Origin: Emiliania huxleyi CCMP1516
Lineage: Eukaryota
DNA length: 64,000 bases
Assembly (NCBI RefSeq): GCF_000372725.1
Contig: NW_005201277.1
Coordinates: 134,347 to 198,346 of the forward strand
Direction of reading: 5' to 3'
A program made the position numbers and the translations under genes. The first letter of the stretch is position 1. Each line of letters starts with the position of its first letter. Positions 1-52,510 of this stretch are shown here, in pieces. The notes beneath the pieces were generated by a model. The model was not told the origin of the DNA. It did no database searches and saw only the letters and a list, made by a program, of their open reading frames with translations.

Positions 1-815
1 CCGTCGGAGAGTGCGACGCCCTCGTGGGAAGGCCTCCTCGCCCGCATGGCCAGCCGCATGGCGCAGTCGGTTGGCCAGTCCCTCGCGGAGGCCCTTGAGC
101 TCGACGCGGCAAGCGGCGTGCAGCGGCGGCTGCTGGGGAGCGTCGAGCTCTCAGCCCTGCTCGGAGCCGTCGCCGCCGGCTGCTGCGTCGCCTGCCGCCA
201 CCGCCGGCGGCGGCGGCGAGAGAGGCGGTTCGATCAGCTCGCCGACGAGCCTGACCAGCCGGACCACCAGGAGCTGCACGGCGAGGGGAGGTCCGAGGCT
301 TTTGGCACCGAGCGCAGGAAGAAGCAGGTGGCGCCGCAGCGGGGAGACCGCGTCACAAGCTGCTGTGAACAGCGTCTCTTCACACCTCTAGCTGTGAACA
401 GGTGCCGCAGCGGGGAGACCGCGTCAAGCACGGCAGGCGCGGCGAGGGCACGGTGGCCGAGCTGCTGCCCGACGGCCGCTCGCGCATCGTCTTCGACGAG
501 GAGGAGGAGCACGGCGAGCACCGCTACATCGGGCAGCTGGAGGGGGCAGCGCCGCTCGACTCGCCGCAGCGGCGGCAGGCGACGCGGTCGCACGTCGAAG
601 AGGCGGCACGGCGAGCGAAGCTCGAGGCGAGCGCCGCGGCCGGCAGGCGCGCGCTGAAGGAGCTGCAAAAGGAGCAGGCACGGCAAAAGGAAGCGCAGCA
701 GGAGGCGCAGACCCGCCAGCTGCTGCGGGCGCTGGCGCTCGGCCAGACGCAGCCCAGCCTTGCCCGGAGCCCCAGCCCGGTCCGATCCCGTAGCCGGTCC
801 CTGCCCATCCCGTAG
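1..815 (+). CDS. 3' part of a hypothetical protein (probable TM segment, then coiled coil); intron ~329-401; 5' end may lie outside the window
   Basis: ORF 46.. (LSALLGAVAAGCCVAC hydrophobic stretch) joins ORF 402..815 across an intron ending GCTGTGAACAG at 401. Confidence 0.5.
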
Positions 816-1805
816 CCTCAGCCCTGTCCCTGCCCGGAGCCGCCTCGGGGAGCGAGTCGTGCTCGGCGGGCTCTCGGCCCGCCCCGATCAACGGGCGGCG
901 GGGCGTGGCGCGGAGCTTCGAGGGAGACCGAGACCCAGGCGGCGGCCACTACGTGGTGCATCTCGAGGGCAGCGGCCAAAGCGGGGAGGGGGGGGGTGAG
1001 GTTGTGCGGGTGCGGCCGGAGAATCTGGATGGATTGTGAGTCCGACCCGGCCGCGCTCGCGCGGGCGCCGCCGCACTTTCGCGAGGCGTGGCTCTGAGCA
1101 CCCGTGGGGGGGTGGGGGTGGGAGGGTGGGTGGGTGGTTAATGACTTGAGTAAGGGAAGGCGATTGCGCAGCCGGCACCTCCAGCGCGGCCAACGTTGTT
1201 TCTACTAGACGAGCCTCTGTGGGGAAAAGAATAGATGTTCCGACGTCGACTCGAGTCCGAGAGGAGCGGAGAGAGGATTGGCGAGTGTGGCCCGAGCCGC
1301 GCAGGACGGAGGGGGAGAGCGAGAGGCTGCCGGCGCGCGGGGCGGGAGCGAAAACTCTGCACTCGGCACTGGACTGGCGCGCACTGGCACTAACAGGTAC
1401 ACCACGGGAGCCGCAAAGAATAAAACAAGCTGTAGGTAGGTAGGTAGAAAGGTGAAGAACAGCCAGGCTCGGACTGGACACCAACGCGGTATGGGTGGAC
1501 GCTGGACAGATGATGACGACACGCACGAGCGACACACAGACACAAACAGGCTCACAAGACACACAGCCAGCTGGCTGCCACACACCCTGAGTTGGCGTAC
1601 ACATAACTCAAGGCCACATCCTCCCTGTCGCCCCCCCCAGCACTCCAAGGTGCCAAGAGAAACAAACAAGGGCACAACAAACAACAGACGACAGGAAGTG
1701 ACATGTGAGGCTAGAGCAGCATGCTCCACCTCTAGCAATCTCTCCGGCCGGCAAGCTGTACATAGCTGTACCATACCGCAAAAAGTCCGAACCCTGCAAG
1801 TAAAG

Positions 1806-5164: not shown

Positions 5165-6673
5165 TCACCTCAGTGTGGCCGAGTGCTCGCCTAGCTGGGC
5201 CGTCTCCTCCTTGGACGGCACGCACCGTAGCCAGCAACGCCGCCGATCCTCGCCGCCGCCCTTGCCGTCCGCCTCGATGTCTCGGGCGCCGGCAGCGCGC
5301 AAGCGAAGCACAACGTCGTTGTGTCCCGCCATTGCAGCCAGAGCGAGGGCCGTTCGCCCGCGAGCGTTCTTTAGGTCCGGGTCCGCGCGGCGCGTGAGGA
5401 GCAAGTCGACGGCCCCGAGGTTGCCCGTCAGAGCTGCGAAATGCAGTGGCGCCGCGCCCGGCATGTTGTCAAAGAGCTCGAAGAATGGGGGGGCCATCCT
5501 CGAAAGCCAGTCGAACACCAAGCAGACAGCGCGGCTGATGAGCATTAGGGGGGGGGTTGCTGCCGTCGAAGAGCTGGAACAGAGCGCCCGCGGCGTGCGC
5601 CGGTTGACGTCGCAGCCCTGGCTGATGCAAAAGTCGAGCGTCTCGACGTCGCCGACGCCGAGGGAGAGGTTCACCGTGAGAAGGCAAGCGCCGAAGCCGT
5701 CAACTGACTGCAGGCTGGCGAAGACGGCCTCCCGCTGCTCGGGCGCGGCGTCGCGCAAATAGCACTGGATGCCGTCCTTGCGGCCAAACAAGGCGGCGAT
5801 GCCCACCGGCAAATCGCCGAAAGCGGTGACGGAGCGCAGCATGGCGCCGCCGCAGCGCTCCATCAGGACACGGATGTTGCCGGCGTGGCCGCCAGCGAGG
5901 GCGGTGTGGAGCGGGGTCGCACCAACTTCCTTATCGTGCCGCGTCGGGTCCGCGCCAGCGTCGAGGAGCATACTGACCAGCTCGGGCGCATCGCGAAAGC
6001 GGCACAGCCGGTACAGAATGGTCTCGCCTCGGATAAAGTCGAACGAGGGGTGCCCTTGCGCGAGTGGGGCTTCGACGTCTGCGCCCGCCGCAATCAGCTC
6101 GCTGGCGAGGTCGCCGCGGCGTGCCAGGACTGCGAAGCGAAGCGGCGTCAGTCCGGAACGGCGCCCGTCGGTGGGCGAGGAAAACTGCATGCGGTGCAGC
6201 CAGGCGTCGAGTGGCTCACTCTGCTGAGGGAGGTCCACCTCGCTGCCCGTGCCCGCGAGGATGGCCTCGGCGAGCGCCTGCGCGCCCGAGCAGCTCAGCT
6301 TGCACGGAACTGTGAGGCAGCAGATACAATGCGCATAGCAGCTACGTTTGCACGGATTTGTGGGTTGGCCGACGCGTTGCTACGCCGGTGGCTCGACACC
6401 GACTTTGAAAGGGTTGATGCTGCGCCGAACTGCGCTAGGCCTCGTACCGTGAGCACGCGGTACCAGAGAAGCTCGCCGGTGGAGAGGGCGTGCGCCGCGC
6501 GCGTGTTGAGCAGCTCGAGGATCCGCGGGCCCAGGATCTCCTAAGGTGCGGTGCGGTGCAAACTTCTCCACACACACAGAGTGGTGGGGCAAGGGCCGGG
6601 CGTCGCGACTCCACGTCTAGACGACAGGAGCCCCACGGCATCAAATGTGCAAGGCCCGGTGCGCGTGGGTGAG

Positions 6674-6752
<79 letters not shown>

Positions 6753-7580
6753 TCGTGTGTGTCCTCCTTGTCGCTCTCGACGGTGAAATCGCCGTGGCCG
6801 ACTGGAGTCGCGAGCCAGTTGCTGGCCATCTGCCCGCAGCCGCCGTAGGTGAAGACGGAAGAGGAGGACTGGGCGACGATCTGCCACTTTGGCATCGGCG
6901 AGAGAGCATTCGCAAGCTGCTCGAGCCGGCACCACCCTACAAGTTCAAGGGCGTGCGTGCGAACGCCGCAGCTCTTACACCCAGCCCGCGGAGGCGGTGG
7001 CCTCACCGCGACGACTCCAGGCCCGATAGTCGCGAGGCGCGCCGCCCTCGTGCCGCCACGCGCCCGCGAGTACGACGAAGAGCGAGCACGAGGTGATGTA
7101 GGTCCCGATGCTGCTGATGGCGTCGAGGCGCGCCTCGACGTTTTCAGCCGCTTGCGGTATCGAGCAGTAGTCAATCCAAAGGTAGCCGTCGGCAAGGTGC
7201 TCGGCGAGGTGCTTGGCCGAGATGTGCATCTCGCCCCACACGAGCCGCTGCAGTGGCCACTCGTGGATGTCCAGCTTCCCGTTGAGCCCGTCCATGAGCA
7301 GTCCGCGCAGAAGGCGGAGCTTGCAGCCGTCCGGGTCCGGATGGGAGCTGCCGAGCCATGTGTGGCTCACAAAGAGCACGCACTCATCGTCCTCCGTGAT
7401 TTCGTGCAGCAGGCCGCGCGCGGCCAGATCCTCGTGCCGTGCCAAATGTTTGTCGGGAAGCGCGATGAGGTCGCGCACGCGCAGCGCCCAGAGCGGGAAG
7501 CGGCGAGACATCGAGAAGCGCGCGTACTTACTGTTCTTCTCGGAACCGCGCAGGCTCGGTGGGGCGGCCCGCCATGGCAT
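5165..7580 (-). CDS. HET-like domain + ankyrin repeat protein (about 4 exons)
   Basis: FVSHTW..HPDP, LWIDYCSIPQ and RG|WCRLE motifs in exons 1-2; TPLRFA, TPLHTA, APLHFAA, TALALAA ankyrin motifs in 5165-6238. Confidence 0.75.
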
Positions 7581-9194: not shown

Positions 9195-9605
9195 ATGCGC
9201 GCCGCGACGACCCGATGCCATCGGAGCCTGCTGTGCCGGCCGCTGTGGCAGTCGCTGGATGGCCGCCTCGCCAGCGCCTCGCCCAGGCGGCACTTGGCCA
9301 GCGGTGCGCCAAAGGCTGCGCGCCGCCGCGGCCCGGGCGATCCTGTGCTGGTGCCGGAGCTGTGCAGCGCTGGCAGGCTCGCCGGCTTGCTCGGCATGTC
9401 TCCGGAAGGGCTGCTGGCGCTGGCAGAGTCGCTGGGCGAGCCGCTCGCGTCGGAGAGCGCGCCGGTCGGCCGCGAGCTCATCGAGCTCGTCGCCCTCGAG
9501 ACCGGCCGCTCCGTCTCGCTGCAGCAAGTCGACGCCGTCCCGCGGCCGGCGCCGTCCGCAGCAGAGCTCGCCGAGCTGCCGCTTCGCCCGCCGGTGGTGA
9601 CGCTG

Positions 9606-9647
<42 letters not shown>

Positions 9648-12600
9648 CTGCGTGGCTCCTCCATCGCCGCGGGCGAGGCCGGAGGCATCACGCAGGCAAC
9701 CTCTCGGCCGTCGCCGATTTCTCGCGTAGGACGCACTGCTGTTTGTTTGAGAATGCCTCTGTTGAGCTCACGCGCAGGCCATCTCTGCCTTTTCGGTCGG
9801 CGCGTCGGGAGGGAGGGAGCTCGGCGCCACCTTCATCGACACGCCGGGCCACGAGCTGTTTGCTGCGATGCGCGAACGCGGTGCGCACGTGCCCCGGGCC
9901 AGTGCTTGCACTTTGAATGCCGTGCCAGCTCCTGCCCGTGGCCGGGCGTGGGGATGCGAGGGACTAGCCTGGCCCTTGCCCCACCACCTTGTGTGTGTGG
10001 AGAAGTGTCCCGTACCCTTACCTTAGGCGCACACGCGACGGATCTGATAGTGCTCGTGGTGGCGCTTGACGCGGGCGTGCAGGCACGGCTCGCGCTGCGC
10101 CACTCCCAACATCTCCCCATATCTCCCCATATCTCCCCATCTCTCGCGCAGGCACGGCTCGCGCTGCGTCACTCCCTATATCTCCCCATATCTCCCCATC
10201 TCTCCCCATCTCTCCCCATATCTCCCCATATCTCCCCATCTCTCGCGCAGGCACGGCTCGCGCTGCGTCACTCCCCATATCTCCCCATATCTCCCCATAT
10301 CTCCCCATATCTCCCCATATCTCGCGCAGGCACGGCTCGCGCTGCGCCACTCCCAACATCTCCCCATATCTCCCCATCTCTCCCCATCTCTCCCCATCTC
10401 TCCCCATCTCTCCCCATCTCTCGCGCAGGACACGACGCGAGAGGCGATTCGGTATGCGAAGGAGGTGCAGTGCCCTCTGGTGGTCGCCGCCAACAAGGTG
10501 GATAGACCTGGCGGACCCGAGGCGGTGGCGAAGCTGTCGCAGCAGCTGCTGGAGGAGCAGGTCGTGCTGGAGGCGTACGGCGGCGAGGTGCCGGGAGATA
10601 TGGGGAGATATGGGGAGATGTTGGGAGAGATGGAGGCGTACGGCGGCGAGGTGCCGGGAGAGATGGGGAGAGATGGGGAGATGTTGGGAGAGATGGAGGC
10701 GTACGGCGGCGAGGTGCCGCTCATGCCACGAGGGGAGATCACCCGAGATGACCGGAGATTGCCCGAGGTTAGGGGAGATCGCCCGAGATGACCCGAGATT
10801 GCGTGAGGTTAGGTGCCGCTCGTGCCAGTCTCCGCGACTAAGCGGGTTGGGCTGGAAGAGCTTCTCGACAGCATAGCGCTGCAGGCCGATGATAGGAATA
10901 AGAATGAGAATAACAATGATGCAGGCGGAGATGCTCGAGCTGCATCTCCCCCATATCTCCCCCACATCTCCCCCATATCTCCCCCATCTCGCCACATCTC
11001 ACCTTGCAGGCGGAGATGCTCGAGCTGCATCTCCCCCATATCTCCCCCACATCTCCCCCATATCTCCCCCCCATCTCCCCCATATCTCCCCCACATCTCC
11101 CCCATATCTCCCCCATCTCCCCCATATCTCCCCCATCTCCCCCATATCTCCCCCATCTCCCCACATCTCACCTTGCAGGCGGAGATGCTCGAGCTGCATC
11201 TCCCCCATATCTCCCCACATCTCCCCCATATCTCCCCATATCTCCCCCCCATCCCCCCCATCTCCCCACATCTCACCTTGCAGGCGGAGATGCTCGAGCT
11301 GCGCGCGGCGCCCGACGGACCCGCGGAAGGGACGGTCCTCGCCGAGATATGGGGAGATATGGGGAGATATGGGGAGATATGGGGAGATATGGGGAGATAT
11401 GGGGAGATATGGGGACGGTCCTCGCCGAGATGCTATGCTCTCTTCATTCTCAGCCGATCACCTCCGGTGCCGCGTCTACGCTACCCCGCGCTTCCTCCCC
11501 GCCACGCGCTGATCAACTGCCGCACGGCCGTGCAGGCCATATCTCCCCATATCTCCCCATATCTCCCCACACGGCCGTGCAGGCTATCTCGTGAGCCTGC
11601 GGGCAGCACAGACAACACATGCGCCATAGGTCCTCGAGTCGGTGATGAGCAAGGGTCTCGGGATCCTCAGCACGGTGCCACCCGCCGCCGCGCGTCTCTC
11701 CCCTCTCCCTAGAAGCAACTCCGGCGCAGCAGATGCTGCCGGGTCGCAGTTGTTGGTTCGGGACGTATTCACAGCAGTATGGCGGGGCCCCCTGCCCCTG
11801 GAGTGTGTTTAGGTCGCAGATGCGGCGCCACACACACACACGGGCAGCAGAAGGCCCTGCGCCCCGTTGCCCATTGCTTTTCAGTGCTGCCGAGCCGGCC
11901 GAGTGTAGATCGTAGTCCCTCGCGCTCTGCCCATCCAGCCAGCCGCGCGTCATCCGCCTCTCTCGTGTATGCGCCCTCCATATTTTGTCCTGCCCTGCCC
12001 CTGCCCTGCCCTGCCGCACTACACTGCCCGCACACTGCCGCACAACTGGCCTGCCCGATCCCCTACCTGCCCCGGGTGTGAAACCCACACTGCCCACCCC
12101 TGCCCATCCCACACTGCCCAGCTGTGAATAACCGCCCGCTCGCGAGGTCTCGGAGAAACTTAGGGTATATCAAGGGAGCACCAGGGTGATGAGCGCGCCC
12201 CATATCTCCCCATATCTCCCCATATCTCCCCATATCTCGGATTACGGACACACTTCTCCCCCGCGCCTGTGCACGCGCCAGGTGCTGGTGCAGCGCGGCG
12301 CTCTCCGGCAGGGCGACCATGTTGTCGCCGGCCAGAGCTGGGGCAAGGTGCGGCCGCTGCTGGGCGAGGAGGGGGCATATCTCCCCACAGCTCCCCATCC
12401 ATTCCCCCCGCACCTGAGGTGCGGCTGCTGCTGGATGAGGAGGGGGCGCAGCTGTCGGAGGCGGGTCCGGCCGTGCCGGTGCGCGTGAGCGGCGTGCGAG
12501 AGATGCCGCGAGCTGGCGACGAGCTGCTGGTGGTGGGGCCGTCGGTGTCTCGTCTCTCCCCCCCTTGCAGCGGCGCCTCTTATATAGGCGACGAGCTGCT

Positions 12601-14274
12601 GCGTGGGGCCGTCGGTGTCTCGTCTCTCCCCCCCTTGCAGCGGCGCCTCTTATATAGGCGACGAGCTGCTGGTGGTGCCGTCCGAGGCGCGCGCCAAGGA
12701 GGTTGTCGAGTTCCGGCTGTTGCGTGCCGAGGCGCAGGCGGGCGCACCCCCTACCCCCACGGTACCCGAACCCATTCCCTACCCCCACGGTACCCGAACC
12801 CATCCTCTACCCCCACGGTACCCGACCCACCCCCCCCCCCCCCCCACCCCCACACACACACGCGCGCTGCCCTTCTCCCTGGGAAGCGTGCACACGACGC
12901 CTCCCTCCTGTGTGCCGACGCGCAGGCGCTCGCCGCCGCAGCGCCGCGGCGCGGGAGAAAGGGGGGAGGTGCAAAGCTGCTGCCGGCGCTGCTCAAGGCG
13001 GAGTCGTTTGGCTCGCTCGAGGCCGCGCGGGGGAGGGTGTCGCCCCACTCCCCTGTTCACAGCTACACGGGGCCGACAGCTGTGAACAGGCCGCGCGGGA
13101 GGGCCTGTCCCACTTCCCGAGCGCGCGTGTCGAGCTCAAGCTGGTGGCGGGGGAGGGTGGGGCCGGTCGGCACCCCTCCCCTACCTCCACAGTACCCAAA
13201 CCCACCCCCCTAGGTGCGGGAGGGGGTGGGGCCGGTCACAGAGTCGGACGTGCAGCTGGCGCAGAGCGTCGGCGCGCAGGCGGTCGCCTGAGGAGCCTCG
13301 CGGCAGCGTCGAGAGTAGCGCTGCAGACCAGAGATGGTCCCGCAGGTGATCGCCTTCAACGTGCCTCTGGAGAGCAAGGCCGCCGGCCTCGCCGCCACGC
13401 TGCAGGTGCCCGTCCACTCGCACAGCATCATCTACGCCCTCGTCGACGCTGCCAAGGAGATGCTGGAGGCCCCGGCCGTCGACCCGCGCGGCGGGGGCGG
13501 AGATTGGGCGGAGATTGGGCGGAGATTGAGCCGAGGTTGGGGCCGGGACTAGGCGGCGATCGAGCCCGTGGTGGAGGCGCGGGAGACGGGGGAGGCAGAC
13601 GTGCTCGAGGTCTTCACGCTCACACTCAACCGCAAGGACCGCGCCGTCGGCATGTCCAAGCACACCGCCGTCGCCGGCTCTCGCGTGACGGCCGGCCAGG
13701 CTTCGGCGGGCAGCGCGGTGCGGGTGGTGCGGGGCGGCGAGGTGACGCATGAGGGGGGGGCGTCCTCTCGGGTCGTCTCGGGTCGTCTCGGGTCGTCTCG
13801 GGTCGTCTCGGGTCGTCTCGGGTCGTCTCGGGTCATCTCGGGTCCTCTCGGGTCCTCTCGGGTCCTCTCGGGTCCTCTCGGGTACCTCGGGTCCTCTCGG
13901 GTCCTCTCGGGTCCTCTCGGGTACCTCGGGTCATCTCGGGTCCTCTCGGCACCAGGTGATCCACGAGGGGGACGTCATCTCGCTCAAGCACTTCAAGCAG
14001 GAGGTGCGGGACGGCCTTGCACCTTGAATGCCGTGCGGCTCCCGTCGTCTAGACGTGGAGTCGCGAGGGTCGCCCGGCCCTTGCCCCACCACCTTGTGTG
14101 TGTGGAGACGTTAACCTTGCGTGACCTTACCAGGTGCGGACGATGAAGAAGGGGTCCGAGTGTGGGCTCATCCTCCGCGACTACGCCGACCTGCAGAGCG
14201 GCGACACCATCCAGTTCTACGAGCTCATCTCGCGCCGGCCGTCGCTGTACGAGGAGCAAGGGTCGGCCAAGTGA
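9195..14274 (+). CDS. infB: Translation initiation factor IF-2, organellar (probably mitochondrial); many GC-AG/GT-AG introns
   Basis: [42 protein letters not shown] motifs; C-terminal SLKHFK..V..G.ECGL; Arg-rich N-terminal presequence; TGA at 14272-14274. Confidence 0.93.
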
Positions 14275-14521
14275 TACACGCCTTCAGTTTTGTTATCGAG
14301 AGCGGCGCATCCGCTATGGCCTATGCATCTAGTGTCGTCATCCATTCCAGCTGTGAGAGAACCTGATCGAGGTACGGCTGTGTCCAAAATAATGGTTAAT
14401 GCTGTTTTTTAGCACTTTTAAGTTTTATCTTGCGACGGCCAGTTTTGCGACGGTGTATCATTCACAATTTCACTTTACGTGGCTGGGTTCACAGCGATTG
14501 TAGGTAAGTGGAGGGACCAAT

Positions 14522-17500
14522 GTGTATCGCGCGCCTTGCAGAGGGATCGCACGAATGGAAGAAGCTTACAAAGACCAATCATCCCCGGCGATCACCCGAA
14601 GGATGGCCAAACTACACGAAAGATACGCGGAAGCCTTAGCGAAAAGAAAAGCCAACGCCGAGACCGAGAGACGCAAGGCCGAGCTCAAACAACGTCCCAC
14701 GAAGAGCTTCTTTCGAAAGCTCCAGCCGGGGCACGCGTCGAGAACCATCTCCTCCCTACACCGCACACCCGACTGGGACAAGCCAGATGAGAAAAACGGG
14801 GTCACGACGGACCCAGACGAGATATGCGACGAACTAGCGAGGTACTATCAATGGCTGTTCGGACCAAAACAAACCATAAAACAAAAACGAGACATCTTAC
14901 TGACAAAACTGGAGGAAGGACAGCGCTTCTCGGACGCTGACGCCACAGACATGGGCAAACCTTTCAACAAACACGAGGTCCGCGACGCGATCAATCTCAT
15001 GAAAGAGGGGAAATCACCAGGCCCCGACCGACTCTCACCAACTTTCTACAAGATGTTCCAGAGAATTCTCATACCCCACCTAGTCGACCTCTTCAACGAG
15101 GCCGCGAAGACCGGACACCTCCCCGAGTGCCTCACACAAGGAGACATCATATGCCTCTATAAAAAGGGCGATCCGAGAGAAATTAGAAACTACAGGCCAC
15201 TCACCATGCTCCAAGTGGGCTACAAGGTCTATGCCCGCATACTAGTCAACAGGCTCAAGACTAGGATCACCAAGGTGATCTCCCCAGCCCAGCTGGGATT
15301 CGTCCCGGGTAGAATAATTAACGAGGCCTCTCACCTCCTGAAACTCATCCAAGCATACACAGACGAGATGGACCAAGAAGGAATCATTTTAGCGCTCGAC
15401 TGGGAAAAAGCCTTCGACAGAGTCAGCTGGGAATACATGCACGAGGCGATGCACGCTCTAAACATGGGCGAAGAAGCCATCGCCAAGATGGGCCTACTAT
15501 CAAACACAAAATTCCCCCCCACAAGACGAGTCAAGGCGAATGGTAAAAAGAGTAACCCCTTTGACATCAGATCCGGAGTCCCACAAGGATGCCCATTCTC
15601 TCCCCTAGCATTCCTCCTCGTAGCCGAGGCACTGACAAGGATGCTCGAAGAGGGAGTCGATATAGACGGCCAACACGTACGACCAGAAGGTATCCAGATT
15701 ACCGACCCAGATGATAGATCTCTCCTAGTTGAGTTAGTAGCGTCTCTCTTCGCAGATGACACCCAGGCACTACTCAAAGACTACGCCCAAATTGACAAGC
15801 TGTGGATAATACTACAGATTTATGAGGAAGCCACAGGGATGAGAGCTAACCCCAACAAGTTCGAAGGGATACGACTGGGACCACTGAAGCACCAACCGCC
15901 GCCGACACTAAACGGGAGGAGCAGACTCATCAAATGGCTAGAGAGAGGGAGCTACACTAAAATACTAGGAATACCATACTACCTCGAAGAGACCCAAGAA
16001 GAGTCCAATAAATTCTGGGAAGAACTCTACACCAAAATCAAGGTTTCAATGGCGAGCCTAAGAGGACTCAAAGACATGAAGATCACAGGAAGAGCGCTAG
16101 TCGCCAATTTTAAAATCTTCTCTCGTCCCAGATACTGGGCGTTCACGATGGACCCACCCGAGTGGTTCAACGAACAGCTCATCACGGACGTAAACCACCT
16201 TATGTGGGACAAGCACCCCGCCCTGGACCCCGAAGAGGAAGGGTCATACGAGGACCTAGACAGAGCCCCGTGGATTAAGAACCCACATGCCCCGAGAAGA
16301 CTAGAGTGGAGCGCTGGCGGGGGCACCCCCCCCAAACACGAGCTCATAGGCCTAGGAGTCGCCCTTTGCGACTGGGAGCAACACGTCAAAGCCATACGAG
16401 CAAAAGCACTTCTCAGATACCTAGACGCAAGCAGAGGCCAGTATAAGACCCTCCTCGACTTGTGGCTCGCCAGAGCCGAGATAGGACGATCCTCAGTACT
16501 AACCTCATGCAAGGCCTACGACCTCACCAGATGCCTCGACCCGGGGGCGCAACGAAGGGATGCCCCCTCCAAGCTGCCGTCATTCTGGATCAAGGCCATA
16601 AATGATATAAGAGAGCTCCAACTAAAATATTTAGGATCAGACAACCCGCTCGAGGCGCGCTCCACACCAATCTTTAACAACCCTACCCTCCCCCTCCCCC
16701 CCTCAATAACGAAATTTCACAATCTCTTCAACACAGCCCAACTACTCACAGTCACGAACTACTTCACATCGGACGATACCGCATACCTCGCCACCTCCAT
16801 CGACCCATACATCAATTTCCGCTACCCCAGATCGACAGATGAACAGATAATCGTGCCGCTAACAGGAGGCAAATGGCACACCACGGACCGAGCGAAAGTG
16901 TACTACGCCTGGCACGAGCTAGGTATAATCCTCAACAAAGGGGGGTTCAACCCTGCGCACAGGAAGGCCAACCTCCTAAAAAGGGAAATCTGGCACGGCT
17001 ACGACCGCAGCCTGAAAATGCTACAAAGACCGCCAGTAGCAGCCAAGCTCCGAACTCTCTCCACGAAGGTCAAACTAGAGCTCAGAGTCAAATTATTGAA
17101 CCTACACGACGGCCCAGTAGTCACGAACAAAGGCAGACACCCTCGACAAACAACAACGGGCCCAGCCCCATCGCCAAAGGAAAAATTCGAACCAGCACGA
17201 GTCTACACCTACCTTGACGTAGAGGACACAGTAGCAAACAACCACAAGTACCTGGTACGAACCCTCAAAAAGAGAGCCGGACATTGGCACGAGGAATACT
17301 GGCTAGCCGAACAAGACGCCAAAGGAATAGTCCACCCAGGAACGAAAATAACTAAGGACGAATTCCTCAGACTGAACCCACTACCCGCCCTACAGTGGGG
17401 ACAAGGCTACAAAGAGAGCGAGGAGGTGGCCTGGCCACACCCTGCGACATACACATTCGACGGGATCGACAAACCACTCGATCAGATAAGCGTCGGCGAC

Positions 17501-18385
17501 ATCACAAAGTACCTGAGCAGGAAGAATATGACCCAACCCAAGATCTTCAAAAACTGGGAGAAGGACCTCCTACAAAGCCCAGGGTGGATAAGAGAGGCAG
17601 GAAGAGACTCATGGGCGCGAGTACCGCGACCCGACCGACCGCACGACAGCTCGTCAAGATTCCGCCACAAAGTTGAGACAAGCAACAAAGTAGTCCACCC
17701 CCAGGATTGGATTCACGCGGCAAGAGCAATACACAGCACGCTAGTTCCGCCCACAATCACCGACAACTATTGCCGACACATCCTCTACAGGAAGCTGGTC
17801 CTTCGGAAACAGCTCAAGGCGTACGGACTAGACACCACAACACACACGAGGTGCAGGCTTTGTAACAGAACCTCCGAAACGCTGCGACACCTCGACGTAT
17901 GCCCAGTCGTCCGGGCGGTCTTTGCACAAGGAGAGTCACTAGACATACAACCGCCGAGATTACTCACCATCATCGGAACCTCGGCAGACACGCCTGAGGT
18001 CCACAACGCACTTCACCTACACATGTGGAATCAAATAATAGTCTCCTTCTACGAGGAGGAAGACATCAAACCCGAACAAACCTGGAAGGCGGTCTTGAAC
18101 CTATTAGTGAGAAACATGCAAGCGTACTCGGGAGAGGCCAAAACTAGGCTCCGACGAATAAGACGCAAGAGCGACCGAGTCAGCGATTCGACCATGAAAG
18201 AAATCAGCGACAAAGTAGAACCCATGGGGACGATTGACTACTACGGCAGACTACGACTGAGCAGGCGAGTGAATGAAGAACTAAGGAGAGTGGGACTCGA
18301 CCACCTCACCACAGAAGAGGCGACGACTCACGCACGAGAGATCAAGTTTGTCAAGGCCTCACAAGCTAGCACATCGAACACCTAA
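14522..18385 (+). CDS. ORF2-like reverse transcriptase with C-terminal zinc knuckle (zf-RVT-like)
   Basis: KSPGPD, NYRPLT, QLGFVPGR, LDWEKAFDRV, GVPQGCPFSP, LFADD, KILG; CRLC...ETLRHL..CP near the C-terminus. Confidence 0.92.
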   Translation: MYRAPCRGIARMEEAYKDQSSPAITRRMAKLHERYAEALAKRKANAETERRKAELKQRPTKSFFRKLQPGHASRTISSLHRTPDWDKPDEKNGVTTDPDEICDELARYYQWLFGPKQTIKQKRDILLTKLEEGQRFSDADATDMGKPFNKHEVRDAINLMKEGKSPGPDRLSPTFYKMFQRILIPHLVDLFNEAAKTGHLPECLTQGDIICLYKKGDPREIRNYRPLTMLQVGYKVYARILVNRLKTRITKVISPAQLGFVPGRIINEASHLLKLIQAYTDEMDQEGIILALDWEKAFDRVSWEYMHEAMHALNMGEEAIAKMGLLSNTKFPPTRRVKANGKKSNPFDIRSGVPQGCPFSPLAFLLVAEALTRMLEEGVDIDGQHVRPEGIQITDPDDRSLLVELVASLFADDTQALLKDYAQIDKLWIILQIYEEATGMRANPNKFEGIRLGPLKHQPPPTLNGRSRLIKWLERGSYTKILGIPYYLEETQEESNKFWEELYTKIKVSMASLRGLKDMKITGRALVANFKIFSRPRYWAFTMDPPEWFNEQLITDVNHLMWDKHPALDPEEEGSYEDLDRAPWIKNPHAPRRLEWSAGGGTPPKHELIGLGVALCDWEQHVKAIRAKALLRYLDASRGQYKTLLDLWLARAEIGRSSVLTSCKAYDLTRCLDPGAQRRDAPSKLPSFWIKAINDIRELQLKYLGSDNPLEARSTPIFNNPTLPLPPSITKFHNLFNTAQLLTVTNYFTSDDTAYLATSIDPYINFRYPRSTDEQIIVPLTGGKWHTTDRAKVYYAWHELGIILNKGGFNPAHRKANLLKREIWHGYDRSLKMLQRPPVAAKLRTLSTKVKLELRVKLLNLHDGPVVTNKGRHPRQTTTGPAPSPKEKFEPARVYTYLDVEDTVANNHKYLVRTLKKRAGHWHEEYWLAEQDAKGIVHPGTKITKDEFLRLNPLPALQWGQGYKESEEVAWPHPATYTFDGIDKPLDQISVGDITKYLSRKNMTQPKIFKNWEKDLLQSPGWIREAGRDSWARVPRPDRPHDSSSRFRHKVETSNKVVHPQDWIHAARAIHSTLVPPTITDNYCRHILYRKLVLRKQLKAYGLDTTTHTRCRLCNRTSETLRHLDVCPVVRAVFAQGESLDIQPPRLLTIIGTSADTPEVHNALHLHMWNQIIVSFYEEEDIKPEQTWKAVLNLLVRNMQAYSGEAKTRLRRIRRKSDRVSDSTMKEISDKVEPMGTIDYYGRLRLSRRVNEELRRVGLDHLTTEEATTHAREIKFVKASQASTSNT

Positions 18386-32771: not shown

Positions 32772-35700
32772 TCATACAAACGTCGGCATGACCCGGATCT
32801 CGTAATACACCACCTTTGGCTTATTCGGCTTGCCCTCCACAGACTCCTCCTTGTACTCGCGCAGCTGGTTGGCAAGCTCCTCCGTGGAGCTCGCCTTGGC
32901 TCTGGATGGCCCCGGCTTTCCGCCGCTGCCGGACGGGGCGCCCGCTAGCACCGCTTCGGTCGAGAAACGCGAGTTGGTCTTTTGCTTTGTGGCCTTCCAT
33001 GCCGCCTTTTTGTCTTCTGCTGTCACTGCAGGCGAGTCCTTCTGCTCGAGAACCTGCAGCATGGTGCACGGCGGGAAGAGCACCTCCTCCTCGCCGGCAA
33101 ACTGCGAGAGCAGCGAGATGTCGGCGCCGTGGTGGAAGCCCGTGTCTCCCTCGCATGACGGGCGGAGGCTCCACAGCACGTTCGGGCCATTCTCGTCCAT
33201 GTACATCAAAGGCGTCGCGCGGTTGCGGGAAGTGGACATGAAGGCGGTGTCCGTGGCACAGACCATGCCGAGCTCGCCCCGCACCCAAAACGAGTATGGC
33301 AGCTCGCCGCGCACGCCACGGTAGAGAGGCTTTTCCGCCTCCTCTGGCAGCGTGATGGCGGAGAGCTTGCGGATGGCGCGGCAGAGGTGCGCCACAGTGG
33401 CGGTGAAGGTCGCCGCCGGGTGCGTCGCAATGAGCCGGCGGAAGCCGCCGGAATTGTTGCCGATCTCGCGCAGGAAGCGGTTTATGGGCTGGTAGGCTGG
33501 GCCAGTGTACAGCCGCACCGCGAGCACCTCCTCGCGCGTCAGGAAGGCGTTGGCCTCGCTCGGCATCGGCGTGTCCGGGCTTATCTGCTTCAGCTTCTCG
33601 CGCCGCTCTGCAATGCGCGCGTTCATGCGATCGCAAAACTGCACCACGGACATGCCGCCGTTTTTCTCGTCGCGCGTGCCGCGCGTCTTGTCAGCGGCGG
33701 GGACGGCTTCCCCGTTGACGTACTCCCACTCCTCGCGCAGCGTGTACATGACGTCCTTGAAGTCCGTCCAGGAGTAGTCTCGCATAAACTCCTGCTCGAG
33801 CGTGAGCAGCGGCCGCTCGATGATGTCGTCGAGGCCCTTGACAAACGCCTTGCGCGACGACGCGTACTGCAAAGAGACGGGCAGCTCCGCCATCTTGCCG
33901 CCTCCGGAGCCGCTCGAGCCGCCAAGCCGCTTCGGCGCCCTAAAGGTCGCCGTGACGACGAGAAGGTCGACCTTCGGCCTCGTCACGCCGTCTGGCGCGA
34001 GCCAGCTGCCGGCGCGCTTGGTCTCCTTGAGTCGGAACAGCGTGTTGGGCGGGAAGGCCCCCGAAGTCTGCTTCCGGGAAGTCGGCTTCAACGCCCCGCC
34101 GCCCTTCGATGCGGTGGGCGCGATCGTCTTCTTGATGACGATTGGTGCGTGGTCGCCGTGGTCGTCGCTCGCCGCCGCCTCGAAGCAGACAATGGGACCG
34201 CTGACAGGCTTCAAGCCCCCGTCGTCAAAGACCATGAAGCCCTCCTCGCTAAAGCAGTCGAGGCGGTCGTTTGCCTGAGGTGGGGGATGGAGAGCGCTGA
34301 GATGCGGGCTGCGCGGAGATGCTCAGCAGCCCGGGTGTGGGGTGCGGGGCGCGCGCACCATGACCATCACCTCGGAGACGAGCCCTCGGACGCCCGCCTC
34401 GTCGGGCGTGCGGATGCTGCTCCACTGCGAGTAGTCCGACGCCAGCCCAAACTTGCCCTCGAGGTTCTTGTACAGCGACGGCGGAAGCGCAAATTTCTTC
34501 TGCAGGTCGTACTCAGAGCTGAGAGCCTCGGAGAGGGCGTACGTGGAGCAGACGTAGTCCTTCCGGCCCTCCCGCATCGCGGCTGCCAGCGAGCCCCTCA
34601 CCGACTGCAGGGCGTAATAGATCTCCGCGTGCTTCGGATCCATGCCGCTATCGACGCTCTCCTTGATCCCGCGAGCAAACTTTTTGAGCACGCTGTCGAG
34701 GGACTTGTTTTCCCTCACATACTCCTCGGTGCCCTTGTCCTTGTCCGCCAGGTCGTCAGAACGCAAGTACTCCTCGGTCCGCAGCTTCACCCACTCCTCC
34801 CGCCACTTCTCCATGCAATCGTCCGGAGGCGGCCCAACGCAGTCTCGCAGCGAGCGCAAGTAGCCAGTGCGGCTGGTCGGGTTGCCCGGCGGAGTGAGCT
34901 CCGCCACTCGCGTGCGCGCTGCGAGGAGCGAACTCCCCGCCGCAAGCACCTGCTCGCGCGCTTCGCAGAGCTGCACGTCGGAGAGGTACTTCCCCAGAGG
35001 CCAAGTCAGCTTGGGCCGTGGCGCCGTGCCCTCGGGCGGCGGCGGCGGCGTGTTGGCGAAATAGAGCCGCGCCGAAGGGCGGAAGAGGCCGGGGCGGGTG
35101 AGCAGGACGGAGAGGCGGAGCAGGCCGGCCGCGCCGATCGACCAGAGGCGTTCTGGGAACTCTGCCCAGAACCGGTGCTTGCCCCACTTCTCGACGGCCC
35201 TGTCCCAGCCGGCGCCCTTCTGCTTCAGCAGCTCGTCGAGCGTCTTGTCCACCAGCGGCGTGAGCTCCTCCACCGAGATCCACCGCTCCGAGAAGCCGAG
35301 CTGAGCGATGTCCGCAAAGCCGGATATGGCCAGCACCCCGCCGCGTATCGGCACGTGGGCACGCAAGTGCGGCCAGCTGGCGTCGACCACGCGCTCGAGG
35401 CTCTGCCGCGACCGCTCGAGCGACGGCCACTCTCCGGCTGCTGCTGCCGCGTCCGCCTTGAAAGCGTCCTGCACCTCGCCCACGCTGAGCGGCATAGAGA
35501 CGGGAGACACCCCGCCCTCGGCGGTTGACATGCCGCGGATGCCCACCTGCACCGACGAGCCGCCGCCGGCGAGCAGCTGCACGCCGCCGTCATGCCCCGC
35601 GTCCTCAAAGGCCGCATGGAAGAGCGCCTTCGCCGCCGTCCACTCCCACCGCACCTCGTCGAGGCCCTCGACGACGCGGAAGGTGACATTCGGGTGCTCG

Positions 35701-38700
35701 CATCGGCAGAAGCGCGCGAACTGGTCAACCTTGCGCGCGCCCTCGTCGCTGTCCCGAATCTTGCGCACGCCGCCGGTGGCGCCGATGAAGATGCCCCGCT
35801 CCAGGTCGGCGTCGAAGTCGGCGAGCGTATCAGAGAGCAGCTTGAAGAAGAGTTCAAAGGTCTCATCGCCGCCGTCGTTGATGGCGTCGCCCAGTGTCAT
35901 GAAGCTCTTGTCGTCGCGCCGCAGCTTGGCGCTGTGGAGGATCACCGGCATGCCGTCTGGTCCCTGGTCGTACGCGAAAACCTCGGTGTGCCGCGAGCCG
36001 GCGTCGACCACAAAGGCCCTCGGCATCGAGACGCGCGCGGCGAACTTGACGGGAGCGACGCGTCGTGGAGAGGGACGCTCGAAGGAGCGGTGCTTGGAGA
36101 GGGAGACCTTGCCGTGGAGGTCTGGCGACGCGTCAGGGACGCTCACGCTTGCGAGAGAGCCGTCGCGGCTTTTGCCATCGAAGGTGACCGATTTGCGCGG
36201 CGACGGCGACCTTGGGCCCACCGACGGCTGATGTTTGGAGCTACAGGCACCTCCGAAGCAGCCACCAAAGCAGCCACCGCGCCCGATATCGACCACCTCG
36301 ACAGGGCTGTCGTGCTTATTTGCACCCGCTCGCTGCGTCGAGTGGTTCACGGCTGGCTCTGCCTGCTGCTCTGTACCTGCATCGGCCTCCTTCCTCTTCC
36401 GGAAGAGCTCTGCTCCCGGAAGTATCTCGTGCGCACTTGCCATCAGGCGGTCCTGCTCATCGACAGTCTCTCCCTTCAACCGCAGCGTCAACTCAACCAG
36501 TTGCGCGACGCGCTCATCGGAGTGGACGCCAAGCGGCAGCTTGAGTGCAATGTCGCCCGCGTACACTGTCTTGATGCTGGTGCTGGAGCTGAGATCGGCG
36601 GCAAGGAGCATGCTGTCCTCCTGGCTAAGGCTCTGGTCGGGCAAGTCAACCTCCCCGGACCGAAACCCGCAGAGCGTTTGCAGAGTCTGGTGCTGCTTGA
36701 AGACAGCCACGAGCTGCTGAGCCACCACGAGGGGAATGCTGTTGCCGAGGAGGTTGACCGTGATCAGCGAGCGGCTGGCTGCGAGGCCCTTGGCAATCGC
36801 AAGCACGCCAGTGGCGTCGACCAGTTTTAGTTTGGTCACGACAACGTCCTTCCTTGCAACCTCAACCTTCATCGACCGGCCGTCGAGGTCGTTGCCGTTG
36901 AGCTCGGTGGCCGCGTCCGCGGCGTGGGCGGAGGCGAACTGGAGGTAGCCGGAGCCCTCGATATTGCCAGAGTCCGCGTGCGTGAGCCACTCGATCTTCG
37001 TGATCTCGCCGCACTTGGCAAAAACCTCCTTGATCTGCTCATCGGTGACCGACCACGGGAGGTTGCCCAGGAAGACGCGGCCGCTGACTACTTTTTTCTC
37101 AGTGAAGTCCTTCGCCTCAAACACAATCAAATTGCGGTCCTGGTAGACCACCTCGGCCCCGACCTCCTTCGACTCACCCGAGAACAGCATGCCGATGCCC
37201 TTGCACAGCTGCTCTGCGCCAGCCGCCACGGCCGCAAGCGCCGCTTCGCGCGTGGCGAAGCGAACGATCGCAGGAGCTATGTGCAGCTCGCAAGTCTCGA
37301 TCCGCCCAAAGCTGCCAAGCGTCGCGAGGATCGCCTGCTCTTCGATGCCTCTCTTCAAGTCGAAGAGGCAGACGGAGCGCTCACCCTTAGTTGCGTCGAC
37401 GTAGTCGGTCACCTGGCAAATGCCACTGGAGGAGAGGTCGAGGGTGGTCAGCGTCTGGCTGAGCTTCAGAACGCCGGCGAGCAGGGTTGCAGCCGCCGGG
37501 CCAATCGGGTTGGACTTGACGACGAGGGACTGAGCACCCGCAGGCAAATCAAAGGCATCGCACTTGAGGGCTCCCAGCTTGCTCGCGCTGCTGCTGAGGA
37601 GCGACGCGCCAATGTTTCGCATGCCCGAATCGGTGATCGAGTTGGAGCTCACGTCGAGGTAGGACAAAGTAGAGTTCACGGCGAGAGCCCTGGCGAATGC
37701 GGCGGCGCCGTTGGGGCCAAGCTCATTGCCGCTGAGGTCGAGAGTGGCCAGCATCTTGTTGCACTTGAGCGCCTCGGCGAGAGCAGCGGCGCCCTCGTCG
37801 GCGAGCTCGTTGCCGCCGAGGCGTAGGTTAAGCAGCGAACGGTTGAAACGAAGATCGGCGGCGATGAGGATGCCGTCGGCCGGTCTGAGCTCCGACCCTG
37901 AGAGATCGGCCTCCGACTGGCCGGGCTGAAACCCGCAGAGCGTTTGCAGAGTCTGGTGCTGCTCGAAGAGGACGGTAAGCTTCTCGGCCGCCGCAGTGCC
38001 GATTTTATTCTCAAGCAGATTGACGCCGGCCGCCACATTGCCTTTCAATAGCAACGCGATCACCATGCCCGAGGCGACGCCAAAGCCCCTGTTAGAGAGG
38101 TCGAGAATCTCCGCGAGGGTCGGCGCGTCATTGCGGAGCTGCAACAGGTTGAAGTTCGAATCGTCGAGCTTCAAGTCTGTCAGACTCGTCTTAGTCTTGA
38201 TCGCGAGCGCCTCGCAGATGGCAGCGGCACCGTTAGGACCGATGTCTATGTAGCGCAAGTCGAGGCTGGTCAAGGTGCAGTTGCTCGCCAGCGCCTTGGC
38301 GATTGCAACGACACCGGAGTCGCTGATGTCGTTCTCGGAGAGGGTCAGAGTGGCCAACGTCTCATTGGCGGCGAGGGCCTTGGCGATCGAAGTGGCCCCC
38401 TCTGTGCTGATCTTGTTGTTGCGGAGGTCAATCACCTCCAGCGACGTGTTGACCTCGAGGGCGTTTGCTATCGCTGAAGCGCCGCGGTCTCCCAGTTCGT
38501 TTCCGGAGAGGGACAGGCTGGTCAGGGTCGGGTTGTCCTCAAGCAACGACGCGATCACGATGCCGGAGGCGACGCCGAGGCCCTTGCGGGAAAGGTCGAG
38601 GGACGTCACCGGCTCAATGCCACGTAGCTGCGACAGATTGAGCTTGAACCCGTCGAGGCTCAACTCGGATAGCACCGTGTTGATCTTGAGCACCGCGAGC

Positions 38701-47472: not shown

Positions 47473-49324
47473 TCACATGAGCAGTCGGAGCGCCGTGAGG
47501 CCGAGGCCGGTGAGGGCCGCCATTGTGCCGACCGAGTAGCGCAGCAGGTCTCCCTTCTCCTGCTCGAGAGGAGGGGACAGGTTGGTGGGGGAGCCTTGCA
47601 CTTTGAATGCCGCGCCAGCTCCTGCCTACCTGGGTGTGGAGATGCAAGGGCTAGCCTGGCCTTGCCCTTGTGTGTGTGTGCGTGTGTGTGGAGAAACCTA
47701 CCTCCCTGCCCTACCTCTCCTAGGGTGAGGGAGGGAGAGAGAGCGAGTTAGCATCCCAAGCCCCTTGGGCCCATACCTTGGATACCTTCGCCCCGCTCAG
47801 CCGCCAGGCGTCGGCGAGGGGTGTCGCGTCTTCTCAACGAGACGCTCACTCCTCCTCCTCTCTCCCTACTCCACTACTACTCTCACTCCTCCTCCTCTCT
47901 CACTCCTCCACTACTACTCTCCCTACTCCACTACTACTCTCACTCCTCCTCCTCTCTCACTCCTCCACTACTACTCTCCCTCCTCCTCCTCTCCTGCTCG
48001 ATCTTGGAGCGGATCGCGCTGGCCTCGCGGTCGATCCTGAAGGAGCACGGGGGCCGTCCCTCAGCCGCGCGGGCCTTGGGACGGAGCCGCTGCGCGCTCG
48101 CCCTCGGATTGCTCCTGGCAAACGCCTCCGTCGTGCGCTCGTGCGTCTTTGCGTGCTCCTCTCGCATACGCCCCTTCACGGCAAGGGCGTGGAACGAGTG
48201 GGGCAGCCTCGGGCGCGTCTCGGGCGCGTCTCGGGCGCGTCTCGGGCGCGTCTCGGGAGTGACGCAAGGGGTGCCTCGGGAGTGTCTCGGAGGCGTCTCT
48301 CGGAAGTGCCTCGGAAGTGTCTCGGAAACGTCCCTCACCTGGAACAAGTTGAGGTCGAGCCGGCTCGCAGCCTGCGTCCGCTCGATCTCGTACCGCGTGT
48401 CGGTCCGCTCCTGTTCACAGCCGCAGCTGTGAAGAGACGCCGTTCACACCAGGTGCCGCGTACCGCGCGTGTCGGTCCGCTCCTTGTCTCGCTCGTGCCT
48501 GAGAGGAACAGCGGCGGCGTCACGGAACCCCGACAACCCTTCGTTGCTACGTCCGTCCCGCCGCGCCGCAGTCTGCGCCGCCCAGGCGAATCTCGGGGAA
48601 TCTCGGGCCATCTCGGGGAATCTCGGGCCATCCCGTCCAATCTCGGCCAATCTCGTCTCATCTCGATCTCGCGCCGCAGCTCCAGCCGCAACTTCTCGAG
48701 GTCATTGCGCAGTCGCTCCTATATGGCTCATGGCGCCGCGGCTCGCGCAACGAAGCCACCCGGCGCAGCCCGCTTCGCTGCCGGAGGTCTCCATCTCCCT
48801 CTGAAGCGACGCGTGCTGGCTCTCGAGCGTCACCTGCAGGAAGGCAGTCCCGGGAGCGCTCAGACGAGGTTCGGGCACAGAGAGAAGGAGGTGCGGCCCT
48901 CGAGAGGTCCTCGAGCTTTGTGCGCGCGCTCTCGTGCCGCGTCTCCTGCTGCGACGTGATGAAGGTCAGCTCGGACCGTCCCACGTACTTTGCCTACGCG
49001 TTCCGAGAGGAGGAGAAAGAAGGCTCACGGACTGCGGCTGACTTGCTGAGACAGACGACAAGATTGCCTTGCCTTGGACCGAGACTCCTGCTCCGCCAGC
49101 GACCGCAGCAACAGCCGCGCCAGCACCTCGGCGGTCGGCGGAGGCAGGCCGCCCGCGCGTAGCTCGTGCACCATGCTGAGAGAGTCCAGCGGCGCCGCAG
49201 CCTTCCTCTTTGCGCCTTCCGCTTTCGTGCAGAGGCCGGCGGGGCGCAGCGCTTGCGGTAGCCTGCGCTGGTGCACAGCTCGGCGCGCGCATACGGAGGA
49301 GGCGGCTGCTCGCCACTTCGGCAT
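47473..49324 (-). CDS. DUF1640 / CCDC90-MCUR1-Fmp32-like mitochondrial coiled-coil protein, multi-exon
   Basis: LDSLSMVHEL..GGL....AE, ERLRNDLEKLR.EL, YEIERTQAASRLDLNL, GRMREE, IDRE; C-terminal TM DLLRYSVGTMAALTGLGLTALRLLM*. Confidence 0.8.
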
Positions 49325-50505: not shown

Positions 50506-50822
50506 TGTAGACCGGCGAGATGGGGCGCAGCCCCAGCGAGCTCGTTTTTAGAGCGAGCGCAGCGAGCCGATAGAATAGAAAAGGTAGGGTTAGTGTTAAC
50601 CCGGTCGGTGATAAGCCCGGAAATATATGTGACAAGAAGATCCCCAGCGAGCTCCGCTGTTGCCAGTGCACATACAACCCTAGCCAACTTATGGCAGCCC
50701 TAGCGGCAGCGCGAAGTTAGGGTCTGGGCCGGGGGGGGGGGGGGGTTGTTAGGGCTGCATGCTGCGGAGCGGACTCCCCCCCAGCTCTCACACACAACCC
50801 GGCGGAGGGTTGCGGCGCTTGA

Positions 50823-51213
50823 ATACATAATACGGATACGTAATACGTAGTACATAGCCCTCTCCGGCGGGCTTTCGGCGCTTGACACATAATACGGATA
50901 CGTAATGCGTAGTACATAGCCCTCTCCGGCGGGCTTTCGGCGCTTGATGCATAATACGGATACGTAATACGTAGTACATAGCCCTCTCCGGCGGGCTTTC
51001 GGCGCTTGATACATAATACGGATACGTAATGCGTAGTACATAGCTCTCTCCGGCGGGCTTTCGGCGCTTGATACATAATGCGGATACGTAATGCGTAGTA
51101 CATAGCCCTCTCCGGCGGGCTTTCGGTGCTTGATACATAATGCGGATACGTAATGCGTAGTCCATAGCCCTCCCACGTGCAGGCGCCGCTGAGTGATGCA
51201 TAATACGGATACG
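50823..51213. repeat. 62-bp tandem repeat, ~6 copies
   Basis: Units start at 50823, 50885, 50947, 51009, 51071, 51133. Confidence 0.92.
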
Positions 51214-51351
51214 TAAGGTAAGGTAAGGTAAGGTAAACTTCTCCACACACACGAGGTGGTGGGGCAAGGGGGGGCAACCCTCGCGTCTCCACGTCTGACG
51301 ACAGGAGCCCCACGGCATTCAAAGTGCAAGGCCCAGTGCGCGTGGGTGAGC

Positions 51352-51423
<72 letters not shown>

Positions 51424-52510
51424 TCACGTCACTGCATCCTCCGCCGGTTCCTCCCGTCGCCTCTTCTTTGTTCGAATGTTTTTCAATCCATCCTTCACGA
51501 AGCCCTCCCATGTAGCTAGCGTTCTTGGCGAATGTCTCGAAATGGCCAGCAGGCGCTGTCTGCTCGCGGTCTGTGCGGGCCGCTCGTCCTCCTCGCCCTT
51601 CTTTCGTCCTCCCGTCCCACCCCTCCACCATGGCCTTCTCGGCACTTCTTTCTCCATCCGCCTCGCCCTGCCTTTTCGCATCGTGCCGTTCGCCCTCCAT
51701 TCGGTGACCTCCATGGCTGTCCGCCCCTTTTTGGGTGGCGCTCTCGATACGGTTGCGTCAACCTCGACGTCGCTGTCGCCCTCCCCGTCCCCGCCGGCGT
51801 CCGTGCCTCGGTTCGCGTCATCGGTAGCGTCTCCGTTGTTCCCTCGTGCCCCGCCGTCGCCCTCTCTGCTCGGGCCGTTAGCGATTTCGCTCCTCCTGCG
51901 TGTCGCCCCTCCGTCCCCTCCCCTTTCTTCGTCGTCATCGTCGCTGTCGCGAAAGCCCTCCGGTCCCTCGATTCCCTCGCCTATCCCCTCCGCTGCGTCG
52001 TCCCAGTTTATATCCTCATCCTCTGCGCACGTCGCGTTGGCTTCCTCTTTCCCCCTTTCCTCCCTGCCCCTCTCGCTGTCTGGTGTTAATGGACCCCCTT
52101 CCTCTCCCTCGCCACCGTCACCGTCTCCATCCCCGTCGCTACTGCCCTCCATGCCCGCCGCCCTTTGTTTCACACTCGTCTCTGCCATGTCCGCCGTCGC
52201 CGCCGTCCTGTCTGCTGCGCTCTGTGCTCCGTGGTACAGTCGCTTATTGTTGCTCAGGATTAGCTCACGCACCAGGACAGCCTCCTGCTCGTTATTTTGG
52301 CTTGCCGATATGCATCCAAAGTTCCACGCTAGCTCCTCCTTCGTCACGTCTATCTTTTTGCAGTATCTCGCGAATGCCGTCCGCGCTTGCTGGGGTGTTA
52401 TTGCGTTCGGATCCGCCCTGGTCCCCGCCCTGTATCCCATCTCCTTGCGGTGGCTCCTGTATGAGTCCCCATATGACCATGTGATTTCTTGGCCTTCGGA
52501 TACGTAATGT
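51424..52510 (-). pseudogene. Gene fragment beginning with a SET-domain C-terminal motif, followed by an acidic low-complexity region
   Basis: EGQEITWSYGDSY matches the GEE(L/I)T.xY motif; upstream SET motifs absent. Confidence 0.4.

Follow-up and report, generated by a model that had tools for sequence, protein, structure and literature searches.

Introners, the repeats that give rise to spliceosomal introns, include non-LTR elements, which make up about 5% of the classified introners in the available text of Gozashti et al. 2025 (PMC12130899). The part of its table at hand has 14 non-LTR rows, one of them a haptophyte, with examples in Pavlovales CCMP2436 (fam1), Symbiodinium CCMP2456 (fam3) and Strongylocentrotus (fam1), and calls three E. 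huxleyi families unknown or LTR. Five introner families of 37-70 nt are given for strain CCMP1516 in a table of 2022 (available part of PMC9860276). On transposon insertion at an AGGT protosplice site, both splice sites are co-opted from the duplicate (PMC3443670), and the class 14 introners of Polarella show an AGGH duplication (10.1101/2020.10.14.339549), according to the accessible portions of these sources. E. huxleyi accepts GT, GC and GA donors, its hand-curated junctions being 56% GC, 40% GT and 4% GA in the available part of PMC4028052.

The window analysed here is a stretch of 64,000 nucleotides of Emiliania huxleyi CCMP1516 (contig NW_005201277.1, positions 134,347 to 198,346) with a GC content of about 65%. 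It contains a repeat that likely turns some insertions into new introns in Emiliania/Gephyrocapsa huxleyi, and that can best be regarded as the 3' end of a LINE-type element, with introns arising as a by-product. As in the non-LTR introners described by Gozashti et al. in the available text, an element of non-LTR type yields spliceosomal introns whose splice sites are borrowed from the target. Unlike those introners, the copies are ragged 3' pieces that give introns of 70-235 nt with duplications of 5-16 nt, and it is likely the repeat tail that serves as branch point and pyrimidine tract. From the E. huxleyi families in the accessible tables the repeat is set apart by class and length only, and it may equal a 70-nt family. 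With the AGGT and AGGH cases, as far as their available descriptions go, it shares a duplicated AG|GH that gives both splice sites, an unchanged coding sequence and the use of GC and GA donors; those cases have short duplications of fixed length and fixed ends, whereas here the length varies, insertion is seemingly untargeted and a minority of copies are introns.

The family is not described in the available text of PMC11282704, PMC3488318, PMC2784329, PMC13508280, PMC5963040, PMC11347168 or 10.1101/2024.05.26.595999. A literature search gave no paper on it or on a tail-based route to introns; the family may be catalogued in Repbase or in the 2013 genome paper. Non-LTR introners being already known, the apparently new part is the family and the tail-based route.

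Anatomy of the repeat family

An initial annotation of the window had reported five copies of a SINE/introner-like element of ~130 bp. BLAST of these stretches against the window found all five again, at the claimed places and on the claimed strands:

6541-6675, minus strand: copy A1
~9886-10026, plus strand: copy A2
~14013-14133, plus strand: copy A3
~47594-47724, plus strand: copy A4
~51217-51352, minus strand: copy A5

The pairwise identity of the copies is 72-88% (BLAST and alignment), and BLAST of the five against the window gave no sixth copy of comparable length. Two independent motifs have five matches each in the window, where 0.11 and 0.01 are expected (100 shuffles). Rfam and ARAGORN returned zero matches on the window.

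A metagenome scan with one exact 25-mer gave at least 121 loci (numbered with L), mostly from three assemblies, whose species is assumed from the common element; the same 25-mer gave no match among viral and prokaryote contigs. Window and metagenome together hold at least 127 copies, and 117 sites (112 metagenomic) are left after removal of six copies without downstream flank and four duplicates. Every copy ends at one common 3' end, formed by a fixed module of ~100 nt and a (CTTAC)n tail. The 5' ends are ragged, and the element part ranges from 26 to more than 300 nt (61 metagenome copies with upstream flank, among the matches listed). The same module is preceded by at least three different upstream bodies. 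A target-site duplication score of at least 7 is reached at 28 of 60 sites with both flanks, against 5.8% of 400 swapped-flank controls (among the matches listed; this count excludes three reference loci and both window copies on the minus strand). The duplications are ~5-16 nt long and diverse in sequence (among the matches listed). A clear duplication is absent at the other 32 sites, and the repeats of A1 and A2 are short or degenerate. Summed over the module, the depth in contigs of runs X1, X10 and X2 reaches ~2,000-14,000 times that of a flanking exon, a ratio that is not a copy number; the genomic copies likely number thousands.

A fixed 3' end, a short-repeat tail, truncation and variable duplications are marks of target-primed reverse transcription, and the 3' ends of LINEs can be common to SINEs or other non-autonomous partners. 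Of the LINE marks, a fixed 3' end, a simple-repeat tail, 5' truncation and target-site duplications of variable length are present here. As in LINE and SINE pairs that share 3' ends, a single module, in which stem-loops are predicted and which a tail of short repeats follows, stands behind at least three upstream bodies; unlike in those pairs, Rfam found no head derived from tRNA, 5S or 7SL. The stem-loops are three hairpins in an RNAalifold prediction of weak support, in which the double change in one of 25 pairs equals a subfamily difference. The SINE label is not supported: no tRNA head was found, the copies have ragged 5' ends, and a long ORF adjoins the shared part in one subfamily. On the seven loci with the longest copies Rfam gave four chance-level matches and no tRNA, 5S or 7SL head at E<=1; for two subfamilies the true 5' end may fall beyond these loci. 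The ragged 5' ends and the duplications of ~5-16 nt do not fit a MITE or another DNA transposon with terminal inverted repeats.

Some copies stand in tandem, inserted beside or within older ones (L053, L020, L107, L121), and in L002 one subfamily is nested within another in opposite orientation. Two further bodies, in L038 and in the upstream parts of L022, L047 and L108, carry the same module. L038 has at 3-848 (plus strand) an ORF of at least 281 aa, with no Pfam match, that stops ~190 nt upstream of the shared part.

The long element and the search for a reverse transcriptase

A5 had been taken for one of the ~130-bp copies; it is instead the 3' end of a 1.28-kb insertion, 52496-51217. The features concerned are:

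51217..52496, minus strand: A5, 5'-truncated long element, 93-99% identical to the metagenome locus L079
52497..52507, minus strand: 5' copy of the 11-nt target-site duplication of A5, identical to 51206-51216
51206..51216, minus strand: 3' copy of this duplication, its first letters common with the tail
14504-18385, plus strand: reverse transcriptase element with a 1293-aa ORF (Pfam RVT_1), 230 nt past the IF-2 stop

A5 reads, in order, the end of an ORF (weak SET-like motif, acidic tail), a stop at 51424, (CA)n, the module and a perfect (CTTAC)n tail. That A1 and A5 adjoin (CA)n had been noted correctly; the (CA)n is part of the element and stands at the same place in L079. A5 landed in the edge of a 62-bp tandem repeat (50761-51234), in which the 11-mer of its duplication is also present.

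The ORF of L079 is 5'-open, has 954 aa and stops just before the (CA)n and the module, its start lying beyond the locus. The fraction of A at its third codon positions is 0.26, against 0.31 in the reverse transcriptase ORF of the window and 0.05-0.15 in six host ORFs. The E. huxleyi CCMP1516 protein XP_005781469.1 belongs to the 90%-identity cluster of the element ORF. Along the ORF (L079 1612-4476, minus strand; window 51424-52496, minus strand) a SET-like motif, a coiled-coil and acidic stretches are observed. Pfam gave a weak SET-like match only (E 0.06-0.14), and an Atlas search led to SET-like clusters (0.89-0.91) and to nothing for the N-terminal part. A PDB sequence search returned weak matches, and the single-sequence fold has a pLDDT of 33. 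If the SET-like motif of these weak Pfam and Atlas matches is real, a SET domain would be an uncommon feature in a retroelement. An origin of the A5 ORF in a host SET gene was rejected, since the ORF is cut at the target duplication and recurs at other sites.

Pfam and protein searches with the ORF part at hand linked no reverse transcriptase or endonuclease to the family: the search for longer proteins gave 0 and that for proteins of near length gave three near-identical pieces without Pfam domains. The reverse transcriptase element at 14504-18385, which we take by its motifs to be L1/Tx1-like, was rejected as the parent; its 3' end differs, lacking the module, and there is no protein likeness.

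Copies as observed and predicted introns

The genes and introns of the window that bear on splicing are:

9195..14274, plus strand: IF-2-like translation initiation factor gene, host of A2 and A3 (weak Pfam GTP_EFTU and IF2_N; RNA contigs)
9881..10026, plus strand: A2 as a 146-nt GT..AG intron (RNA contigs)
14004..14133, plus strand: A3 as a 130-nt GT..AG intron (RNA contigs)
9696..9777, plus strand: control, 82-nt GC..AG intron without the element, 7-nt boundary repeat (RNA joint 9690-9773, seven letters fitting both sides)
13742..13955, plus strand: element-free control intron occupied by a 10-bp repeat (RNA contigs X12 and X13 place its ends loosely)
5165..7580, minus strand: HET-like/ankyrin gene, host of A1 (Pfam Ank strong, HET weak at E=0.029; exon limits away from A1 approximate)
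6541..6766, minus strand: A1 as a predicted 226-nt GA..AG intron (sequence and protein homology)
47594..47724, plus strand: A4, the most diverged copy, ending in CTAG|G (BLAST and alignment)
47560-47993, minus strand: predicted GA..AG intron of a minus-strand gene with an exact 12-nt boundary repeat (reading frames)

The host of A2 and A3 is presumably an IF-2 gene, a name taken from the weak Pfam matches and from sequence motifs. A2 is skipped in the RNA contigs of two of two RNA runs and in none of two DNA runs; A3 is skipped in those of three of three RNA runs and not in run X2, whose type is unrecorded. The joints of both lead to open IF-2 reading frames. In the DNA runs X1 and X10 and in run X2 no intron-less allele was found, the element being present at the A2 and A3 sites examined. 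The A2 intron begins with a degenerate copy of the start of the next exon, and the remainder is element. In A3 both splice sites lie within an exact 8-nt repeat, AG|GTGCGG.

The HET/ankyrin gene has a homologue (P0001) of 40% identity, with which the exons that flank A1 are colinear and gapless once 6766-6541 is removed. A1 is thus predicted to be spliced out as a GA..AG intron; it is composed of a donor within the 5-nt repeat AG|GAG, (CA)n at 6676-6750, the module and a decayed tail. The annotated coincidence of tail end and acceptor in three copies was confirmed, the acceptors of A2 and A3 being RNA-supported and that of A1 placed by protein homology only. The position and strand of A4 stood as well; its antisense placement within the predicted intron 47993-47560, read from reading frames, is likely. 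Pfam gave no name to the host gene of A4 (0 of 4 pieces above the cut-off), which in our view resembles a CCDC90/DUF1640 protein. Elsewhere in the window, a 1931-aa ORF (34323-40118, minus strand) has LRR, RRM and ADP-ribosyltransferase-like Pfam matches.

Eleven introns were modelled, three from the window and eight from the metagenome, the latter picked for a donor near the 5' end of the element. Their donors are 5 GC, 4 GT and 2 GA. In 10 of the 11 an AG also precedes the donor, and the splice sites are therefore mostly derived from the target. The claim that the element supplies 3' splice sites was thus half right: A1, A2 and A3 do end at acceptors, but in those ten the AG comes from the duplicated target, and only in A2 does the tail supply the A of the acceptor. 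What the element contributes is likely the branch point and the pyrimidine tract. Among the nine introns of the metagenome and A1, homology extends over the junction in L055, L062 and A1 only. In L055 a Peptidase_M3 domain continues over the element (model position 124, then 127), which forms a 70-nt insert with a perfect 12-nt repeat; in L062 a NeuB domain does so (137, then 143). Kinesin, FtsH-like M41, nitrite reductase and FAD-binding domains begin past the tail in L080, L006, L089 and L104, respectively, and 20 of the 29 metagenome pieces scanned have no Pfam match.

The introns of A2, A3, L055, L088 and L018 consist, end to end, of element and duplication, with 0-10 nt left over. In the kinesin case L080/L023 the duplicated AG|GTGTAC is preceded by non-coding sequence, and therefore an existing acceptor was duplicated. 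The proposal of a mobile element that creates or remodels introns is supported by A2 and A3, which RNA splicing removes exactly and whose introns are element plus target duplication, and by the remodelled acceptor of L080/L023. A leftover AG|GT stays inside the kinesin intron (L080 283-459, L023 155-324), where recursive splicing is possible. As in introners, a repeated sequence forms spliceosomal introns in unrelated genes (RNA for A2 and A3, Pfam for L055 and L062, homology for A1) and the coding sequence is restored on splicing (IF-2 joints). The likeness of whole introns from end to end that marks classical introners was not found, the 5' ends being ragged and just the 3' part common.

An AG|G within 13 nt past the tail is present at 29 of 112 metagenome sites, against a background of 11% from flank windows and joins of tail and random flank (among the matches listed). 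By linker, it stands at the tail end of 14 of 22 diverged and 15 of 85 young copies, five being unclassed (among the matches listed); in the young copies the enrichment is not significant (p=0.08). A target preference for AG|G is not supported by these young copies or by the diverse duplications. Most copies, 83 of 112 among the matches listed, have no AG|G at their end and are not introns. A codon model detects coding-like sequence past the tail at 15 of 114 sites, a share not above that of random stretches (16%), but 13 of these 15 are sense and two antisense (among the matches listed). CTGAC is the usual branch-point consensus. TGAC occurs in the tail of 8 of 29 acceptor-ending copies against 2 of 83 others (p=3e-4, among the matches listed), in a test made after the pattern had been noticed and which age or subfamily may confound. 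Of the tail units, which are not independent within a tail, 13 of 67 read CTGAC in acceptor-ending copies against 1 of 201 in the others (among the matches listed). Near-random insertion followed by selection fits these counts.

Origin of the introns and its meaning

The preferred reading, held at a probability of about 0.7, is that the repeat is the 3' end of a LINE-type element, and that its sense copies at AG|G(T/C/A) are spliced out (by RNA for A2 and A3, by prediction for the others) and would hence be newly gained introns. Target-primed reverse transcription would begin at the (CTTAC)n tail and stop early, leaving a 3' piece of 30-300 nt; the target is duplicated, over ~5-16 nt. Where the duplicate contains AG|GH, its first copy would serve as donor and its second as acceptor, as seen in A3 and modelled for nine more, so that splicing would restore the reading frame. 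The tail would provide the pyrimidine tract and the branch A. Insertion may be near random, unspliceable exonic copies would be purged, and the survivors would drift towards a CTGAC branch point.

The strongest competing account of the same splice sites, itself unlikely, is that the introns are old and that the element only landed on or close to acceptors already there and took their place. The duplicated old acceptor of the kinesin case is of this kind, and since boundary repeats are found at element-free introns as well, the repeats at A1-A3 alone are no proof of recent gain. Five more element-free introns have such repeats, a count biased by the choice of donors by best match. The element-free introns 9696-9777, 12738-12925, 13280-13345 and 13742-13955 start with a near-copy of the start of the next exon (13 of the first 18 nt in the last), a feature that could mark intron birth in this alga generally. 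The stronger case for gain is made by A2, A3, L055, L088 and L018, which hold almost only element and duplication and leave 0-10 nt for an older intron; L055 moreover lies within a Pfam domain. Element-free introns of the IF-2 gene are often filled with 10-11-bp repeats. At 10075-10430, 10572-10720 and 10920-11290 of the same gene, exon end and intron recur in several tandem rounds, by real slippage or as an assembly artefact.

Other accounts concern the agent of insertion. A Penelope-like element of the Naiad/Chlamys type in place of a LINE, with the same route to introns, is rather improbable. Most copies are single in spite of the four tandem loci, the (CA)n belongs to the element (L079, A1, A5) and not to the target, and clear variable duplications with a short-repeat tail suit LINEs. 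The 5' truncation, head-to-tail copies, (CA)n and non-autonomous partners with common 3' ends that the available part of PMC8557442 reports for Chlamys have their likeness in the truncated copies, the tandem loci and the three upstream bodies found here; unlike in those elements, Pfam shows no GIY-YIG or Penelope-like reverse transcriptase domain in the available ORF part, and the duplications are clear. Very improbable is the capture of abundant RNA or cDNA pieces as filler at double-strand-break repair, with repeats made by gap filling. Repeat length does vary, there is microhomology at the junctions, no reverse transcriptase was found and the available text of PMC3443670 recognises such repair as a route of intron gain; on the other hand, one 3' end and tail are common to all copies, and A5 and L079 run into a multi-copy ORF of retroelement-like composition. 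A classical introner, either a DNA transposon of fixed length or a reverse-spliced intron, is scarcely credible: similar sequence is indeed present in several introns, whose splice sites, like those of dinoflagellate introners (10.1101/2020.10.14.339549, available part), stem from target duplications, but the 5' end is not fixed, no terminal inverted repeats are seen, the duplication length is variable and the 83 copies without AG|G (among the matches listed) are the majority.

A wider extension of the LINE-type reading, that E. huxleyi obtains its introns mainly by target-duplicating retrotransposition, with the tail of this family as a ready-made 3' intron end, is doubtful at present. If true, births by duplicated GC-rich exonic AG|GN would explain the majority of GC donors and the GA donors, and hundreds of intron births would be datable and possibly still polymorphic, with branch points improving after insertion. 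Scans for introners that depend on annotation would tend to miss the family, because its copies are ragged and reference models favour GT donors (available part of PMC4028052).

The origin of new spliceosomal introns is an open question, and why some transposon insertions get spliced is not understood, as stated in the accessible part of a review (PMC3443670). The copies described here suggest an answer, in which the splice sites derive from the duplication, the branch region likely comes from the tail, the relaxed GT, GC and GA donors widen the target and selection filters the outcome. This cultured alga, for which many strain genomes exist, carries young and old copies side by side, some of them intronic and others not, and each of these steps can therefore be counted and tested.
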